Shown one piece after another: positions 10,541 to 51,491 of a stretch of 64,000 nt of DNA. Positions within the stretch are counted from its first letter, which is position 1; every line of letters begins with the position of its first letter. The DNA is taken from assembly GCA_951406725.2 (NCBI GenBank), contig OX597818.1, positions 70,060,001 to 70,124,000 of the forward strand, written 5' to 3'. A program made the position numbers and the translations under genes. Source of the stretch: Octopus vulgaris. Its lineage: Eukaryota. The notes under the pieces were generated by a model. It was not told where the DNA came from. It was given only the letters and a program-made list of their open reading frames with translations, and did not search any database.

Positions 10541-13500
10541 ATCATCATCATCATCATCGTTTTACGTCCGTTTTCCATGCTAGCATGGGTTGGACGATTC
10601 GACTGGGGTCTGGGAAGCCAGAAGGCTGCGCCAGGCCCAATCTGATCTGACAGTGTTTCTACAGCTGGATGCCCTTCCTAACGCCAACCACTCCGTGAGT
10701 GTAGTGGGTGCTCTTTACGTGCCACCTGCACAGGTGCCAGACGAGGCTGGCAATGGCCACAATCAGATGGTGCTTTTTTTACGTGCCACTGGCACGGAGG
10801 CCAGTTGGGGTGGTGCGGGCAACGGCCACGTTCGGATGGCTCTCTTACGTGCCACCAGCACTGGTATCACAGCTACAATTTCCATTGATGTTGATCGATT
10901 TTGATTTTGATTTTGATTTTTGATTTTTGATTTTTGATTTTTGATTTTCACTTGCCTCAACAGTTCTTCACAAGTAGGGTTTGTGTCACAAGAAGGAAAG
11001 GTATGCATAAGTGGGCTGGCTACGTCCCAGGTAGAGGCCATGGGTTATAGTCTCACTTGTCCTGCCAGGTTTCCCACGCACAGCATACTTCCAAAGGTCT
11101 CGGTCTCTGGTCATTTCCTCGGTGAGACCTAAAGTTCGAAGGTCATGCTTCACCACCTCGTCCCAGGTTTTCCTGGGTCTACCTCTTCCACAGGTTCCCT
11201 CAACTGCTAGGGTATGGCACTTTTTCACACAACTATCTTCATCCATTCTCGCCACATGACCATACCAGCGCAAACGTCTCTCTTGCACACCACAACTGAT
11301 GCTTCTTAGGTCCAACTTTTCTCTCAAGGTACTTACACTCTGTCAAGTGTGAACACTGACATTACACATCCATCAGAGCATACTGGCTTCATTTCTTGTG
11401 AGCTTACGCATATCATCAGCAGTCACGGCCCACGTTTCACTGCCATGTAGCATGGCTGTTCGTACACATGCGTCATACAGTCTGCCTTTTATTCTGTGCG
11501 CAAGAGGCCTTTTGTCACCAGCAGAGGTAAGAGCTCTCTGAACTTTGCCCAAGCTATTCTTACTCTAGCAGTGACTTGGTCACCTAGGTAATGGAAGCTA
11601 TTGACTACTTCTAGTTTTTCTCCCTGGAATGTGGCGGAAGTTGGTCTTTGAGCATTTTCAGTGTTTATTGCTCCTGAGTATCTGCCACATACAAAAACTA
11701 TCTTCACAGTTAGCCTTCCTTTGACATTGCTGCACCTCTTATGTGTCCATAGCTTGCACTTGGTGCATCTTATAGAGTTTCTACCTACGCCTTTTCTACA
11801 GATCGAGCAGGGCCATCTACCTGAAGGCGTTTGTGATTTGCCTGCCTTCCTACATATTAATAATTTAGTTTTAGCTAGGTTGATTTTAAGGCCATTCGAT
11901 TCTAATCCTTGTCTCCACACTTGAAACTTTGCCTCTAGTTCTGATAGTGACTCAGCAATTAGAGCAAGGTCATCAGCATAGAGGAACTCCCAGGGGCATC
12001 CTGTCTTGAATTCCTCCGTTATTGCCTGGAGGACTATGATAAATTGGAGGGGACTGAGGACTGAACCTTGGTGGACCCCTACCTCTACCCGAAATTCTTT
12101 AGTGTACTCATTGCCAACCCTCACCTTACTTACAGCGTCTCTGTACATGGCTTGCACAGCTCTCACTAACCATTCATTTATTCCTCATTGACCAACAGAT
12201 AAGGGATCGGGGGACCCTGTCGAAGGCCTTCTCCATGTCAACGAAAGCCAGGTACAGAGGCTTATCTTTGGCTAGATATTTCTCCTGCAGCTGTCTCACT
12301 AGAAATATGGCATCAGTGGTGCTCTTCCCTGGCACAAAACCAAACTGCATCTCATCCAAGCTGACTCCCTAATTAGTTGGGCTATGACCCTCTCCGTAAC
12401 CTTCATTACCTGATCCAACAGCTTGATACCTCTGTAATTATTTGTATCTAAAGCGTCACCTTTACCTTTGTAGCAGTTGACTATTATGCTGCTACACCAG
12501 TCATTGGGTATGACTCCTTCATGTATCACCTGGTTAACTATACAGGTGACTAGGCTATAGCCAACACTACCAGATATTTTAAGCATCTCTGCAGTAATTC
12601 CTGATAGGCCTAGGGCTTTCCCTGTCTTCATGCTTCTAATTGCCTTAACTACCAAAGAACTGTCAACTCGGATAGCTGGTCCCTCTGTTGGGTCATCATT
12701 CGGTAGACTCTCTTTATCCCATTCATTTTCTTTATTCAGCAACCTTTCATAGTGGCGTCTCCAAACCTCTCTCTTTGCATCCTCATTCAGCGCAAGTGAG
12801 CCATCATCCATGCAGACACATTTCTCTCCTACCACATCATGATTCTCTCTCACACACTGTCTTGCAACACAGAATACCTCAAGTCTTTGGTCCTCACAGC
12901 ACAGAACATTGGCAAATTTTTTCTTATCTGTTTCCCTTCTGGTTAAATAAACCTGTCTCCTAGCTTCTCTTTTGGTAGTCTGATACAATTCCCTGCTACC
13001 ACCGTTTTTCCAGTCCTTCCAAGCCTGTCTCTTTTCTCTAATAGCCCTGTCTACAACATTGTTCCACTACCACATTATTTTGGGTCAAGAGGGGACTTTG
13101 CACCATCCACAGATCTGGTCAGTGGCTCTCAGCAGGTTGTCCCTTAGAGACCTCTAGTTGTCTTCTACTCCATGTGAAGCTATATCCCCTTCTACTTCAT
13201 CAAAGGCTTCAAGTAATATGTCCCTAAGTCTCTGTCCATTTGCAGGATCTTTAAGCTTCCAGATCCTTCTTCTCCATGTTGGTCGTCTTCTGGTCGTCCT
13301 CTTAGTCCTGATCCTAAAGTCACTAACTACCAGTCTATGTTGTGGGGTACATTCTTCGCCTGGAAAGGTTTTAGCATTTATAAGGAGCCATCTTTCCCTT
13401 TTCCTGGCAAGGATGTAGTCAATTTGGCTAGTATGTTGGCCCGATCGGTAGGTGACTAGGTGGCTGGTAGGTTTCCTGAATTTAGTGTTGCAAACCATAA

Positions 13501-13652
13501 GATCATTTGCATCGCAGAACTCCAGCAGCCTGGTTCCCTCCTCATTGCGGGAACCATAACCATAGCCTCCATGTACACCATGGAATCCCCCAGCATGTCG
13601 TCCAACATGACCATTGAAGTCACCAGCCGCAAAGAGAAGGTCTCTGTCATTG
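10541..13652 (-). mobile_element. RTE-clade LINE, 5'-truncated in the AP-endonuclease domain, with (GAT)n tail
   Basis: APE motifs GDFNGHVG, NEEGTRLLEFC and SQIDYIL; RT motifs NYRGIKLL, QFGF.PGKSTTDAIF, FVDMEKAFDRV, GVHQGSVLSP and YADD; C-terminal RLRWYGHV and GRGRPRKTW; ~500-bp 3' UTR. Confidence 0.97.
11053..13650 (-). pseudogene. Frameshifted APE-RT ORF of the RTE element, with a PHD-type Cys/His insertion
   Basis: ORF-track pieces 13154-13498, 12299-12988, 12174-12359, 11489-12166 and 10986-11327 are consecutive parts of one protein broken by frameshifts and stops. Confidence 0.93.
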
Positions 13653-13799
13653 TATAATATATATATGATGTATTCATAAATATAGATATACAGACATATA
13701 ATGAATGATAGAGATATATATTAAACATATATATAAGATATATATATATATATATGTGTTTGTGTGTGCATATATATTTGAAAAATGAAAAGCTTGATT

Positions 13800-15125
13800 T
13801 CATTGATAGTTCTGATCAATTTAATTTTCTGATAATATATAATTTTCCGGTTTAGTTTGTAGACCTACTAAGGTCTTTGTTAATATCGGAGGGGAGAATT
13901 TTTTAAAGATTCCTTGTTAACTTTTCTGGAGAACATTCTTGCATTTGCCAGTGGCAGTTGCCAAACTAATCTGAGATTGTGTTGTGCTGTGTGATTCTAT
14001 ATATAAGAGATTTGGGTATGTTTGGGGTGGGTTTAGTGTTTGTTAATAAGTGTGGGAGTAAAAGAGTGTTGATGAACAAGAGCTGAAAGAACATAGTGAA
14101 TGGTAAAAAGGACTGAGGGTAGAGTTGGGAGGTGGTAGAGTGTCTAAGGAGTGTTTTATGAAGGGCTTTTGAAAGTGCCCTCTGCTGGTTCCATTTAGGT
14201 AGTTGACATTTGGAGAAAAATATAATGGTCATTTTTTTTTCAAATTCTCTTATGACTGAATCAACTATCTTAATTTCATAAAGTGAAACTTTGGTAATTT
14301 TCTATGATAGAGATGAGATTAGGTGTGTCGGTGGGGGAGATCATGCTAGCTCACATATTTACTTCCCTACATATAAACAAAAGTATATATATATAACAGA
14401 TAAACTTATTTGGAAATGGATGCGTGGCGTTCAATCATATAATATAAATAAAGTATATATACACACGCACATATGCATACATACACACATAAATACATAT
14501 ATACACACATACCGATATATACATACACAAACATATATATGCACACACATACACACACACACTCACATATTTTCTAGTTCATACGAACCCATATCTTTGC
14601 ACATACATTCACACCTCCATATTTATATACGCCTACATACACATGCATACGTACACACACACACACATATATGTACACATATCTAAACTACTCAAGTATT
14701 TAAGTTTATATGTACTTATTGGTGGGGAGGGGGATTAGTGAAATGGTTGAGTATCTCTGAGGGTTGTTCTTTTCTTCAATGATTGAATGATTGAAAGTGT
14801 CATCCACTTCTATTTCGGTAAAAAAGGAGGAATCCCGTTATTGGGATATCAGTTTTTGTGTTCAGGAGCGGTTTTTACTTTCTAATGAAAAATTCTTTAT
14901 ATTTCTGAAAATGTTCATTGTCTGACCATAACTTAAAGAAGTGGGAGACTGTGAATTTCCCTTTCTGCATGATGCGATGCATTCACGGCAAGTGGTGTTT
15001 CTGACAGAGGGGTCTTTAATTTGCCGTTTCTTTGTCTTGTAGTCCCATTCCAGTTTCACCAATGCAGTATTCTTTACATTGTAGGCAAGTTACACAGTAG
15101 ATTAAGTTTTGTTGTTTTGCAACAT
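13800..15125 (-). mobile_element. Penelope-like element remnants (GIY-YIG endonuclease at ~14860-15125; decayed ORF pieces at ~13800-14260)
   Basis: Minus strand reads NLIYCVTCLQCKEYCIGETG, then QIKDPSVRNTTC and KEFFIRK*KPLLN. Near 14000-14040, TKPTPNIPKSLIYRI resembles the PLE RT thumb. Confidence 0.75.
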
Positions 15126-15583
15126 ATGTATATATGTAAATGTATTTTCTTTGAGTGTATGTATAAACGTATATAGTATCTGTCTGTGCATATTCTAATA
15201 GTATAGAGGCCTATTCCTATCTCACTGAATGCAAATATATGATAAATTAAATATACCCCCATCAAGGGCAAATCCTAGGAAAATCAGTGATCAGTGATAA
15301 CTTAGATTCTTCACTTTGAAGAATAGCTGTTTGTGTGTGTGTGTGTGAGTGTGTGTGCATGCATGCGCAATCTAAAACCATTCTAATATAACTATGAGCT
15401 TACACTGTGATATATTGCCCCAGTATCAGATGAAAGTAATATTTCAATAATGTTCACAATTAGTATAAATATTATTACATTACAACCCTATATCTCCAAA
15501 CGTACACAAACACCCTTATAAGTGTGTGTGTGTGAGTGTCTGTATGTATAGGATACTGACAGAATAACATATATAGATATATT

Positions 15584-19739: not shown

Positions 19740-19995
19740 TTCAGTAAGAACTTTTTTCTCCAGCAATCAAAGGAAAAGGAAGGAATTGTGACATATCAGA
19801 ACCTAATCAGACAGATGAAGAGGATGTGAAATACAAAGGTGACAAATTTCCCTGTGCAAATTGGCGCATTTGGCACAGCACACAAACTGTGACGGAACTG
19901 GCTGAAAAGCATTGGAATTCAGCAATACATATTCTAAATTTTGAACAATACAGAGAAAACTATTATTATTGAGAAAATCATCATCATCATCATCA

Positions 19996-20029
<34 letters not shown>

Positions 20030-20330
20030 CATTATTATTATTATTATTACATGCTGCTTTAGTAAATAGGGACATTATCCTGATGTCTAATAAGTCTCTT
20101 CAAATCTCAAGAATCGTTCTCAGGGTTCTTACAGAATACAGGATGACACTTTGTTGCTGGTTGACAACACATATCTCTGTTCCAATGTCTTTTGGTCTGT
20201 TCAGTCACAGTTTGCGTGTTCTGCCAAGTACACCAATTAGCACTGGAACTGTTGTCACATTTATATCCCACAATCTCTTCTTCTGCCTGGTTAGGTCCTG
20301 ATATGTCACAATTTCCTCACTTTCCTTTGT
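19740..20330. mobile_element. Two opposed Dong/R4-like 3' fragments flanking a (CAT)n(ATT)n array
   Basis: Plus 19810-19960 encodes KVTNFPVQIGAFGT..WLKSIGI. Minus 20100-20330 encodes VTTVPVLIGVLGR...LQQQSVILYSVRTLRTILEI. Confidence 0.65.
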
Positions 20331-22960: not shown

Positions 22961-23648
22961 TGCAGTTATGCCCAACAGCTGCAGTTGTATGTGGGACACA
23001 TCCATCTGTCATCCAAGTCCATAGTGATGATTGCCCTGTTGTCCTCCTTTAATTGGGCAGGCAAGGTAGTCTTCCTTTGCCTGGTTGCATGTGGTGAGAG
23101 AAAGGTTGTCAGGTGGTCAAGGCTGAAAGGAATGAGTAAAGAGACTTCCCTCTTTGGTAAAGCTCTCTTCAACTTGAAAAAGAATCTAAGGTGGAGAGGG
23201 AAGTGCTGTCTGTGAGTGAAAGTTGCAAAAATGGCAAAAGTGGATGGTAAGTCAGGGGATGGGAGTTGGAAAGGGCACTTATCCTTGATATTCAGAATGT
23301 TTTTGGATGGTGGGGTTCCTCGTTTATCCCTAGAGGTCCTCCTGATATAGGAGAACCCCATCACTATTCCCATTTTTTTTTTTTTAGTGTCATATACTAT
23401 GTACACTTGCCTTCTTTTAATGTATACTGAGCCTACTTTTTTATTTTTATCATTCCATTATATGTAAATCCCCCACATTTTATGAGTAAAGATTATTTGC
23501 CGACATAACATGGCAGTCCTGGTTTAGGACAAATGTTGTTGTAATTTAGCCCCAGGAGAAATCGTCTCCAGCTGGTTATACGACACGATCTGTGTCTTTA
23601 TATTTTCGAATAAGGGAATCTAGCAACCCCACTCAGCTCAAAACAATA

Positions 23649-23690
23649 TCTGTGTATCGTGATTTCCGGGTTATTTCTCTTCATCAGCTG
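23649..23690 (-). ncRNA. Hammerhead ribozyme motif with intact core; 5' strand of stem I lost at the inversion
   Basis: Minus strand reads cag-CTGATGA-agag-aaataa-cccg-GAAA-tcacga-TA-cacaga. Confidence 0.7.
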
Positions 23691-23699
23691 AACAGTTAT

Positions 23700-23744
23700 T
23701 CTGTGCTTATGAAGGGAAATAACCCCAAAATCACGATACACAGA
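23700..23744 (+). ncRNA. Hammerhead ribozyme motif with intact stem I; core mutated
   Basis: tctgtg-CTtATGA-aggg-aaataa-cccc-aAAA-tcacga-TA-cacaga. Stem I tctgtg/cacaga is a perfect 6 bp. Confidence 0.7.
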
Positions 23745-24366
23745 TATTGTTTTGAGCTGAGTGGGGGTGCTAGATTCCCTTGTTCGAAAATACAAGGACA
23801 CAGATCGTGTTGTATAGCCAGCTGGAGACAATGTCTCCTGAGCTAAACTTCAGCAACATTCATCCTAAACCAGGACTGCCATGTTATGTTGGCAAATAAT
23901 CTTTACTCAAAAGTATTGTTGCTGAATGTCTCTCGTTGTGAGATTTACAAATAGTAATTTCCCTACACTTTATGTCTGTCTTTTTATTGCCCCCCCCCAT
24001 CCTTTACCCTGGTGCCAAACAAAAGTTATCATCATTATTATTATTATCAATATTTGGGATACCAAATTAAGAAATGCATTGGACAGTATTTCCAGAATTT
24101 ATCCCAGCATTTTACACCCTTAATTCAAATTGCTCTGAGGTCAACAACTTGGCATTTTATCCTTTTGAAAAAAATCAAGTACCAGTCATATATAAGGATC
24201 AATATAATCGTTTGCTCCCTCCCCTCATCCAATGTTTGGTCCTGCACCTATGTTAAAAAGTATCATTAATTTCGTATTTTGCCCCTGTGACAAATAGAAT
24301 AAAATCATATCATTAGCATCATCATCATTGTCATTACAGTCATTAGTATTAGAAATTTTATTATTA

Positions 24367-24519: not shown

Positions 24520-24800
24520 GGGTAATCTCAGGCAGTGGGCTTCCTTGATTATCCCTAGAGGCCTTCCTATATCAGGAGGGCCATGACTCTATCATCCTCC
24601 CTGTTATTTATTTTTTTTTTTTTTACCTTTGTATTTTATGCACATCTCCCTTCTTTGTCTACACTGTGTATGCTTTCTTTCTTTCTTTCTTTCATTTTTT
24701 ATTTTATCATTTCATTGTATGTAAAACCCCCACACTTTATGTCTGTCTTCGTATTCTCGCCCTCATCCTTAGCCCTTGTGGCAAATAAATGAAATTATTA
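24520..24800 (+). mobile_element. Second, uninterrupted copy of the Tx1/L1-like 3' UTR
   Basis: atccctagagg.c.tcct and ttttatcatt.catt.tatgtaaa.ccccaca.tttatgtctgtc are shared with 23326-23483 plus 23974-24030. Confidence 0.7.
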
Positions 24801-39759: not shown

Positions 39760-40420
39760 GCTGTTGGAGGGTGTTGGGGGTGGCATCCTAGATGGAGGTG
39801 TTGAGTGGAGCCGAGGTGAGAAAAGTGGCAGGCGTTTGGAAGTGTAGGTGTTGTGTGATGATATACTTCTATTGTATGTGTGAAGATGGATATCAAAGGG
39901 ACCGGTGTAAGCAGAAGAAGGAGTGTGTTGTGCATATGGGTGCAAGTAAATGTGGTGTAGGACGAAGGAGTGTGTATGTGTGCAGGCGTATGTATATGCT
40001 GTTTGGATACAAGTAGTATGTGTGGTTTGAGGAATAAGTTAAAAAGTGTCCAGTAGGTGAGGTGGTCGTAGTGGTTGAAGGGTCAGTTGTGGTAAGACAT
40101 AAGTGGTATGTACAAATATGTATGAAGAGAGTGTTCAAAGGAAGTGGGATGGAGAATTAATACTATGAGGGGCTGAAGTATAGAGAAAGAAAATTAATTT
40201 CTGCTCTAGGCAGGAGCGGGAGTCCAGATGACCTCTATGCAAGATCAGTTCAAACATAAATAGATGTTGTAGGGAATGACCAATCAAGCAGAAATTGCAT
40301 GAGAATGGGATGTTATTCTTAAGTTTGGTATCCCAAAGATGTTCGGCAAAATGGTGAGAGTGGTACAGACCAGCTTGTCCAATGTACAATGAGTGGGAAG
40401 GATGGCAGATAAATATGCGT
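39760..40420 (-). mobile_element. Penelope-like element 3' part (GIY-YIG endonuclease at 40135-40420 plus downstream pLTR-like sequence)
   Basis: SLYIGQAG....FAEHLWD.....PFSCNF...GHS...EQKLIFFL....PHSIN matches the PLE GIY-YIG C-terminal pattern YIGQTG..RF.EH..HF..H..E..I..L..P.GLN. Confidence 0.8.
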
Positions 40421-40549
40421 ATGAATGTATGTATACGTGTATTTTTAAGATACATATATATATATATATATATATATATCAATAAATGCATGTATATATT
40501 TCTGTACATACATATGCTGATGTAAACAGGAAAAATAGAATTCAAAATA

Positions 40550-40598
<49 letters not shown>

Positions 40599-41807
40599 TT
40601 ACACATACATGTGTGTGTAAATGTATATGTGTGTTTATATATATAAATACACACACATCTATACATCTTTATCTATCTGTCTATCTATGTGTGTGTGTGT
40701 GTGTGTCTGTGTGTGTGTGTGTCTGTGTGTGCATGTATACACCTATGTATGAGTGTATTCTAATGATCCTGACTAACAAAGACCTCTTCTTCGGAATATT
40801 AACATAGTTCTGAAAACCCATTAAATAATTCTTCATCAGTTATTCTTGTTTACTGCCAACTGTTTTAACTCTGCAGGAGGACAATCAAGCAATACAGAGT
40901 AGCCATATTTCTAATCAGAAGTGTTTCATCTTTATTGAAAGTACATGCAATATTCTTCCAAGATATACAACTTCAAAACTGATATCTCCATTTTGAGAAA
41001 AGTAGTGAATTTGCTCTGCCAGATGTGACTACTATTTCAGAGCAGATTAGGAGAGAAACTACATAGATTTCAATGATATTTTGAGCAGATTAAGAGGTTC
41101 CATAGAAGATCTCATATTGGTTTCAAAACTAATCAGTTTCATTGTGATCTAAATCTCTACTTCATATCTATCATTCCTTCATTCTTCAATCTTCTTTGAA
41201 TATATATGAAGTAAAGAAGGCTGGTGGGATAGCAGAAACAGTTGAGCACCAAACTATGTTACAGTATTTACTTTGATCAGTCTGCTATCAGAGTTCAATC
41301 CATGCTGAGGTGGAATTTGTCACTTTCTTTTTCTGTTTTTTCTCCTTTTCTTTTTCTGTTTAGCCTCTTTGTTGTTGTTGTTGTTGGTTAGCTCAGATGC
41401 AGTCCAGAATAAGAATACCTATGATCAAAAACATTCTAGCAGGCATGGTTGTGTTGTTAAAAAATTGTCTTTGGATTCCTGTGGTTCCAGGTTCAATACC
41501 ACTGTGCAGCAACTTTGGAGAGTGCTTCTTGCAATAGCTTCAAATTGATTAATGCTTAATGAATGAAATTTGCTTAATAGACTATGTACCGAAGCCCACT
41601 AGATATCTATGGGTGTGCATGTATGTGTGCATGCATATATACATATATATAAGTTCAGCAAAAATTTAGATTCAAATGAATATGGTACTTAATTTAGATA
41701 CACCAGAATTCTGTACGGTGTTATCCATAAAAATCTGTGGGGTGATTATAATCAAAATAAGCAACAAGAATGACTCCGGAGTCATTCTAGTTGCTTATTT
41801 TGATTAT

Positions 41808-49849: not shown

Positions 49850-50162
49850 CACACACACTGTCATATATTTCACATTTATGAGAGATGATAACAGAAGCAA
49901 AAATACAGCTGTCCACATAAAGCCATCAATTTTCCATTTCTGGTGGGATTTGTCTGGACCAAGAATTGTTTTCAACTCTAATTAAATTAGTTGAGATTTC
50001 AGTAATTATTATTAGCAACTAAATTGTGATTGATTTACAGACCACATTACTTTCCATGTATGCGTGTGTGTGTGTGTGTGAAAATGTAATTTACATACAT
50101 ATGTATGTATATATGAAATAATTACACTGTTATATATGAGCTTATGTATATGCATGCATGTA

Positions 50163-51046
50163 CGAGGTCTGATCAATAAGTATCTGGACTGTTGCCATAG
50201 TAACGAAGCTAAAGCACACAGTATGAAGCTGCTTGGCAAAGGCTGCTCTTGCACTCTGTTGTGCATGTGCACTAAATTTTAATGTTCTACCTCACTTCTG
50301 CTCTTTACAGTAGTGCTTGGAAGGAAGGTGTGTAGCGTGTAATTGTTGCATTGACCGTGACAGAGAAAGTTGTCATAGCAATGCTGGCTCAGAGGCCTAC
50401 ACAAACTTGTAGAAAGGGTGTGGAGAGGTGAGCATCAGCCACAGACAAGTGTACAAGTGGTTCAGATGTTTCCAAGATGGCCAAAAAAATGTCAATATTG
50501 ACAAACGTTCTGGGTGACATGCAACCAGCAGAACTAAAAAAAACATCACAGATGTGTGTGAAACTTTGAGAGGAAATCGTTGAATCAGCATCCATGAGGA
50601 TGTGAGTATGGCTTGGTTCAGTCTATTATCACTGAAGATCTGTGTATGAGATGCATGTCTGCCAAGTTTGTGCCAAAACTGCTTTTAGCTGACCAAAAAG
50701 GCACTTGGATTTCAGTTGCACAAGATCTCATTGATTGTGTTGAGAACTATGGAAACTTTTTGAAAACTTTGCATAGGCCTCTGAGCTGGTATCACCAGGC
50801 TTTTGGCAAAATCTGATGCTGATTCTCTGCTCAACTTTCTCTGTCATGGTCTGGTCAATACAATGATCACACGCTACACACCTTCCTTCCAATCACTGCT
50901 CTAAACAGCAGAAGTGAAATACAATGTTAAAACTTTGTGCACAAGCACAACAGAGTTTAAGGTCGATCTATGTCAAGCAGCTTCACTCTGTGTGCTTTAG
51001 CTTCCTTACTATGGCAACAGTCCGGATACTTATTGATCAGACCATG
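50163..51046. mobile_element. Non-autonomous mariner with long inverted ends and TA target-site duplication
   Basis: TA-cgaggtctgatcaataagtatctggactgttgccatag ... ctatggcaacagtccggatacttattgatcagaccatg-TA. Internal peptides QVYKWFRCFQDG and VQSIITEDLCMRCMSAKFVPKLL (WVPR-like linker). Confidence 0.92.
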
Positions 51047-51491
51047 TATACATGTGTATATAAACCTGTATGTATATGTGCTTCCTTGTCTTGAAGGAGT
51101 GTGGGAAAATAATCTCAAAGAATCTGTAACTATTACAAAAACCAATAATTTCAATTTCTCCCCAACTCACAAACTACCAAAAGACCCTTCTTGACCTAAT
51201 TTCATAGTAAAACTAAATATACATACTGTGCATACCAGCAGATGTTTATTTATTCATCACCAACACTCCATTGGTAGTGTAGTAATTAGTGCAGTGCTGT
51301 CAAACGACACCATTATGCAAATTAGTTGTGTCAGGCAGGTTTCTGTTTACATTTTTAATAAGTCACCATCTGCTAATTTATCGCAGCATCTCAGCATCTG
51401 GGAAATGGTTGGGACGGGGAGAGAATCTTGATTCTTGTAGCTGAACACACATCCATATGTATGTGTATGTGTGTATATATATATATATATA

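Follow-up and report, generated by a model that had tools for sequence, protein, structure and literature searches.

Head-to-head copies of a hammerhead-bearing repeat in the Octopus vulgaris genome: a likely retrozyme insertion with the end signature of Penelope-like elements

The stretch of DNA analyzed here, referred to as the window, comprises 64,000 nucleotides of the Octopus vulgaris genome (GenBank assembly GCA_951406725.2, contig OX597818.1, positions 70,060,001 to 70,124,000 of the forward strand; assembly size 2.8 Gb) and is rich in microsatellites and LINE fragments. The focal locus is a mirror-image element of 477 bp at positions 23484-23960, which sits within the 3′ end of a LINE (Table 1). 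Its two arms align with 188 identities over 208 columns and a single gap (~90% alike), in agreement with the inverted arms of ~205 bp described by a first-pass annotation of the window. The 16-nt spacer reported there is not a separate segment: the right arm runs 19 nt beyond the left one, and the presumed spacer corresponds to positions 77-92 of the repeat unit in this arm. Likewise, the unpaired extension exists as a one-sided tail, albeit with a length of ~52 bp instead of 45 bp, and the target site duplication (TSD), given as 13-20 bp, comprises 13 bp, the reading of 20 bp including a chance likeness of the element end to the target.

Table 1. Features of the focal insertion and its host LINE; positions refer to the window.
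Feature	Position	Strand	Remark
Host left of the insertion: 3′ part of an old LINE (ORF2 end and 3′ UTR)	23212..23470	+	paralogue comparison
Left TSD copy	23471..23483	+	13 bp; one change relative to the host-LINE target
Short-ended arm, unit 93-297, ending at fixed site A	23484..23688	-	~95% identical to family majority
Hammerhead remnant of the minus arm: both core boxes, stem II mismatch, predicted inactive	23649..23688	-	
Head-to-head junction	23686..23688	.	3-nt microhomology common to both arms
Long-ended arm, unit 74-349, ending at or near fixed site B	23686..23960	+	~93% identical to family majority
Unit 77-92 lacking a mirror partner (earlier "spacer")	23689..23704	+	
Hammerhead remnant of the plus arm: stem I intact, both core boxes mutated, predicted inactive	23700..23744	+	predicted cut after 23738
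One-sided tail, unit 298-349, interval between end sites A and B	23909..23960	+	~52 bp
Right TSD copy	23961..23973	+	13 bp
Host LINE 3′ UTR, carrying on to an ATT-rich tail	23974..24050	+	

The two copies of the duplication differ from each other by two mismatches, each being one base off the majority target of the host LINE. This target is uninterrupted in a sister copy at positions 24721-24750 and in 14 further copies of the host repeat. The sister copy had been taken for the empty site; it does display the uninterrupted target, but represents a paralogous copy of the host LINE (202/245 identical) and not the empty allele of this locus. Read joints that skip ~497 bases were rejected as an empty allele as well, as they have short sides and probably derive from paralogous LINE copies. 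A sequencing-run contig labelled as another organism spans positions 23000-23513 and crosses the left junction; therefore, the insertion is probably not private to the assembly. The host LINE yielded 692 first-look candidates in the genome, and its paralogues share at most 1.9 kb upstream, one of them with a weak match to RVT_1 (E 0.0015, below the cut-off). An interpretation of the left flank as a minus-strand ORF of a Penelope-like element (PLE) was dropped, since comparison with the paralogues identifies a plus-strand LINE there. Elsewhere in the window, a fragmented LINE with endonuclease- and RT-like frames is discernible by eye (10986-13720, minus strand), and two other inverted pairs at 50147-51062 (210 nt, 82%) and 19768-20329 (150 nt, 78%) are unrelated by BLAST to the repeat family described below.

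When one arm was used as query, the genome yielded 3,234 first-look candidates, the best 40 of which are ~90-93% identical. In addition, the 30-nt 3′ end of the unit has 436 exact matches in the genome, as compared to 0 for the reversed control, and the 5′ half of the hammerhead has 352. Natural tandems define a unit period of 352-354 bp, and both dimers and head-to-tail read-through past the unit boundary were observed; the arrays are short, and the longest arm comprises ~2.6 units. With a GC content of 0.41 and no long reading frame in its 354 bp, the unit is non-coding. Upstream of all 30 of 30 loci chosen by the unit start we found neither an ORF nor shared foreign sequence, most of them showing the unit's own 3′ end, and next to the inversion junctions there is no common foreign sequence except host repeats. 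The earlier designation as a protein-free retroelement is supported. Individual copies diverge from the family majority at 3.6% of the non-CpG sites and 27% of the CpG sites, and the focal locus is a dead copy of this abundant repeat. As to the suggestion of an undescribed non-autonomous family, a literature search conducted outside Repbase, Dfam and most subscription papers retrieved no description of an octopus hammerhead or retrozyme family; its kind, however, is known from the animal non-LTR retrozymes.

Positions 88-132 of the unit are predicted to form a type-I hammerhead with the cut site at unit position 127. Stem I consists of 6 bp and is followed by an internal loop and a second helix, the core is formed by CUGAUGA and GAAA boxes, stem II comprises 3 bp with a mismatch at its base, and stem III is palindromic. 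Within the family, the core boxes are conserved to 94-100% per position, and the hammerhead geometry is kept in a sister family that is ~60% identical. Of the 17 hammerhead pairs, 9 change on both sides across 10 sequences of the family and 6 of the sister family, including pairs of stems I and III, and 95.8% of the cells are paired versus 24-56% in slid controls, whereby the covariation between two related families amounts in effect to one comparison. Moreover, the natural unit folds at a z-score of -5.85 relative to shuffles, the hammerhead capping a long helix. The search with hammerhead models that had been proposed returned no Rfam hammerhead match for the window or for either of two copies of the family, and Rfam matches to miRNAs were rejected, since they merely reflect the hairpin. 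Likewise, the core pattern by itself gave 3 matches in the window versus 2.07 expected, which is not above chance. The support for the hammerhead therefore comes from the family and the covariation, not from the core pattern or Rfam.

At the focal locus, the minus arm carries both core boxes (match at 23663-23687) together with a stem I whose 5′ strand is reduced to 1 of its 6 bases. The plus arm retains the 6-bp stem I, but each of its boxes is altered at a G, which has become U in the first box and A in the second. The distribution of these elements agrees with the first-pass annotation, and the consensus that it reconstructed is essentially the family majority, except that stem III differs. 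Judged from the sequence, neither of the two hammerheads is predicted to cut. As the motifs lie on opposite strands, no single transcript joins them into one ribozyme, at variance with the notion that the two arms jointly reconstruct a hammerhead.

The geometry of the family was assessed with 90 loci taken from the first 100 of the 436 matches to the 3′ end (contigs C1-C3). Four duplicates and four complex loci were dropped, leaving 82 simple insertions, from which the focal copy is excluded. Head-to-head arrangement was observed in 66 of the 82. In 48 of these 66, an outer end at unit position 293-301 (site A, ~297) is paired with one at 349-354 (site B), ~55 nt apart; as the sample is anchored on site B, the long end, A+A pairs are not visible in it. 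Site A follows the cleavage site at a distance of ~170 nt and site B at ~225 nt. The 18 inverted insertions outside the A+B pairing may represent later deletions. TSDs flank 37 of the 48 A+B insertions; they are AT-rich and 8-17 bp long with a median of 13, as compared to 1/300 in a control with mismatched flank pairs. At the junctions of the 66 inverted insertions we observed an overlap of at least 2 nt in 34 cases and filler in 28, and 16 direct as well as 12 inverted arms extend beyond the unit boundary. Some arms end just upstream of the hammerhead and not at the usual sites, as seen at loci L056 and L062 (unit position 85) and L087 (92), possibly owing to a cryptic start site.

The Penelope-type inverted arm with a tail that had been recognized at the focal locus recurs in most of the sampled insertions. 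Long inverted arms inside a duplication would also be expected of a DNA-transposon MITE, or of a foldback element, that ends in long terminal inverted repeats. However, the two outer ends of the family differ in sequence and its centre is variable; moreover, 16 of the 82 copies are uninverted and many are arranged head to tail, and the duplications vary in length between 8 and 17 bp. We consider the probability of such an origin next to negligible, as the first-pass annotation had likewise argued from the focal copy.

The same sample bears on the model put forward in that annotation, namely a ribozyme-delimited element in which the hammerhead sets the inversion point. The focal copy does fit this description, and in 7 of the 66 inverted insertions both 5′ ends fall into unit positions 74-132. 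A mild enrichment is also seen in the wider window of 74-140 (42/148 5′ ends versus 32.3 expected, P 0.056). Within the hammerhead proper, however, the 5′ ends are not enriched (24/148 versus 21.7 expected under a rough uniform null), and neither are those within 5 nt of the cut site (5/148 versus 5.3). The densest zone is found at unit positions 150-194 with 39/148 ends versus 21.7 expected, a window chosen after seeing the data, which coincides with the 3′ side of the long helix, a potential stalling point of the RT. Moreover, the core is present in both arms in only 9 of the 66 inverted insertions and absent from 38 of the 82. The junction ends spread across the whole unit, a pattern that the annotation itself had regarded as incompatible with its model, and the fixed points are the outer ends downstream of the cut site. 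These results render a ribozyme-set inversion very improbable, and the mirror point of the focal copy lies at the ribozyme by chance.

The 5′ limit of the short-ended arm lies more than 10 nt upstream of that of the long-ended arm, in unit coordinates, in 31 of the 48 A+B insertions; therefore, a simple fold-back, in which one cDNA snaps back and is copied on itself, is not general. Self-priming of this kind has been proposed for PLE palindromes (excerpts of PMC3846280), and several observations are in its favor: at the focal locus the long arm encompasses the short one, with microhomology at the junction, the arms of an insertion share alleles, and their 5′ ends are no more than 20 nt apart in 16 of 66 inverted insertions versus 9.6 expected (P 0.02). 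On the other hand, only 17 of the 48 A+B insertions have a short arm that lies within the extent of the long one or is level with it, and in 30 of the 48 each arm contains sequence missing from the other, so that neither arm is a copy of the other. Fold-back is thus refuted as a general rule, although the focal locus taken alone is compatible with it, and as an explanation of this retrozyme insertion we regard it as quite unlikely. The start points of the arms are uncorrelated (rho 0.13; median arm lengths 182 and 186 in the A+B insertions). Together with the frequent further 5′ reach of the short arm, this fits two separate RT runs, whereas the slight excess of neighboring 5′ ends speaks against their full independence.

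Both arms nevertheless appear to share a template. The allele at site 286 agrees between the arms in 61 of 73 insertions (p 4e-6). Likewise, in the 105 head-to-head insertions among all fetched loci, shared non-CpG changes between arms amount to 0.36% within versus 0.095% between insertions, a 3.7-fold difference. This sharing of alleles indicates that both arms stem mostly from one template lineage. Disagreement at site 286 was observed in 12 of the 73 insertions versus ~5 estimated from decay rates, which suggests exceptions to the single template.

In 2 of the 105 insertions the private changes shared by both arms form A-to-G clusters on the hammerhead strand, comprising 6 of 6 changes at L063 (G000:C1:185.40 Mb) and 4 of 5 at L156 (G000:C4:60.445 Mb). 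Exact-pattern searches of the genome returned these haplotypes only at the respective insertions. The two clusters read best as A-to-I edited sense RNA that was copied twice; gene conversion between the arms is a possible alternative. Across the family there is no A-to-G excess (294 A>G versus 274 T>C), and the changes shared between arms (14 A>G versus 6 T>C, p 0.12) lose their excess when the two loci are left out. In RNA reads, A>G differences are indistinguishable from alleles of other copies. A literature search outside most subscription papers retrieved nothing on point concerning edited retrozyme or retrotransposon copies.

Intact ORFs encoding RT and GIY-YIG domains are present in the genome, among them an element (L147) that likewise bears an inverted arm, of 766 bp, as well as a hammerhead of its own. 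Among 40 GIY-YIG loci (20 loci and 20 longer stretches; 150 of 6,136 candidates scored), however, none has sequence in common with the unit; searching the family flanks by tblastn with two PLE ORFs, which may miss a clade as divergent as Hydra, revealed no autonomous partner either. Copies joined to a PLE ORF, as sought by the first-pass annotation, were thus found neither at these 40 loci nor at the 30 unit-start loci. Searches with a generic hammerhead-geometry pattern (747 matches) and one variant pattern returned only non-coding sister subfamilies or PLEs whose ends are unrelated. At L256, two hammerheads separated by 5.9 kb were rejected as a PLE partner, because the ORF between them belongs to a LINE in the opposite orientation and not to a PLE. 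The PLE ORF matched no solved structure or PHROG. The participation of a PLE is therefore deduced from the end signature of the insertions.

Besides these candidates, a young PLE family (L141-L146 and L151) with many near-identical copies encodes an RT and GIY-YIG frame of 781 aa (771 aa in L151) with a separate frame upstream; the hammerhead pattern has no match at its ends. The window itself contains two decayed GIY-YIG ends of PLEs on the minus strand, one at 14857-15126 (tblastn E 3e-5) and one at 40135-40668, the latter recognized by comparison by eye with L271.

These searches are pertinent to a further explanation, according to which the copies are solo pseudo-LTR (pLTR) stubs of an autonomous PLE. 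They would share the enzyme and the end signature, but their RNA would be that of the PLE, without an independent retrozyme cycle. The succession of a hammerhead, ~170 nt and a tail is indeed the geometry of the Penelope/Poseidon pLTR as given in excerpts of PMC11167929 and PMC3846280; moreover, the GIY-YIG search covered a fraction of the candidates, and circular RNA is not evident in three unstranded RNA-seq runs. Yet copies that reach past the unit start enter their own 3′ end or an inversion junction and never an ORF or shared foreign sequence, the unit lacks a long frame, and several subfamilies retain a closed unit of ~350 bp. We consequently hold this explanation to be unlikely.

In the same three unstranded runs, family reads occur on both strands with the same 3′-heavy profile as the genomic copies, and no pile-up of read ends was observed at the predicted cut site. 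The few reads across the unit junction fit tandem DNA equally. At L022:1709, 200-300 reads per run (X21-X23) continue from the short end of the unit into the same flank, so that a considerable fraction of the family reads stems from one expressed locus.

Animal non-LTR retrozymes, according to excerpts of PMC7229834, are characterized by a non-coding unit of 150-450 bp without LTR, PBS and PPT, a type-I hammerhead, tandem arrangement, a GC content below 50%, TSDs of more than 4 bp, self-cleavage, and linear as well as circular monomer RNA. The units comprise 350-390 bp in the mussel and 330/350 bp in the axolotl (excerpts of PMC7229834 and 10.64898/2026.07.22.740005). As far as these excerpts go, the octopus family resembles them in its non-coding unit of ~350 bp, the GC content of 41%, the canonical type-I hammerhead with a short palindromic stem III, the strongly self-paired fold, the long duplications and the presence of PLEs in the same genome. 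The mismatch at the base of stem II is likewise found in HHR_Amex2 of the axolotl. In contrast to the animal retrozymes portrayed there, the family occurs mostly as dispersed, 5′-truncated, head-to-head insertions and not as long arrays, and it is known here from genome sequence with predicted cleavage. Inverted arms or two fixed ends are not described for retrozymes in the excerpts of either source, and PMC7229834 contains no instance of the word "inverted".

With regard to PLEs, the excerpts of PMC8557442 and PMC3846280 report insertions with an adjacent inverted truncated copy and a one-sided tail. In vitro, a PLE protein cuts and extends both target strands, copying starts at two internal sites whose interval equals the tail, and hammerhead cleavage is not needed (excerpts of PMC11167929). 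Pairs of hammerheads on opposite strands, 100-700 bp apart, were noted as early as 2014 (excerpts of PMC4209133). Within what these excerpts cover, the family agrees with endonuclease-bearing PLEs in the inverted 5′-truncated copy, the one-sided tail, duplications of 8-10 bp or longer, microhomology at the junctions, AT-rich targets and a hammerhead upstream of the tail, which measures ~55 nt as compared to the 30-40 bp reported for PLEs. Unlike PLEs, the family has no ORF and shows no sequence match to the PLEs found in the genome; an RT and GIY-YIG ORF within the element, as carried by an autonomous PLE, is absent from the unit.

Inversions are also known from LINE-1 twin priming, where both cut target strands prime and an inversion with a microhomology junction arises inside the duplication. 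There, the two segments derive from neighboring stretches of the RNA that do not overlap, whereas both arms of the present family cover one region from two fixed start sites.

Taken together, these results make it likely that the focal element arose by insertion of a non-coding, hammerhead-bearing repeat of ~354 bp, which is likely a non-LTR retrozyme and was probably copied in by a Penelope-like RT/endonuclease as two 5′-truncated copies head to head. In such a process, the enzyme would cut the target with a stagger of ~13 nt and prime one cDNA from each cut end. One cDNA would begin at site A and the other at site B (~354), thereby leaving the one-sided tail. The stopping point of each would vary, frequently falling within the long helix that encloses the hammerhead, and the two cDNAs would be joined via microhomology or short filler. 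The template would be a multimer or circle of hammerhead-sense RNA, usually one molecule for both arms, and the ribozyme would act in making monomers or circles and not in setting the mirror point. At the focal locus, both RT runs would have stopped just past the hammerhead, and both ribozymes would have decayed later.

The use of PLE enzymes by retrozymes has already been proposed from their co-occurrence and the likeness to pLTRs (excerpts of PMC7229834 and 10.64898/2026.07.22.740005); here, most copies carry the PLE end signature themselves. We give an even chance to the reading that this ties the spread of retrozymes directly to the PLE machinery, with two reverse transcriptions starting ~55 nt apart on one hammerhead-sense RNA molecule (a multimer or circle), one per cut strand, and with rare insertions preserving the A-to-I edits of this molecule in both arms, which would fix the sense polarity. 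In the excerpts of PMC3846280 the polarity of the template is left open. The family as such matters modestly. Its 354-nt RNA with two mapped end sites would offer a compact substrate for testing the start of PLE copying and head-to-head insertion, and the shared A-to-G clusters serve as a barcode for template identity and strand. If the proposed mechanism is true, the family constitutes a natural archive of RNA copying by Penelope-type enzymes.

Among the fetched loci, L161-L180 and L234-L284 constitute a clade of related hammerhead repeats of ~350 bp, comprising several subfamilies with the same two-end geometry and differing palindromic stem III. These sister subfamilies end at two sites that correspond to A and B. 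Whereas the targets of the family are not (TA)n, many copies of the clade sit in (TA)n. At L281 (G000:C13:69.87 Mb), an arm that is ~80% like the family lies head to head with an arm of another subfamily within simple repeats, representing either two templates in one event or two events.
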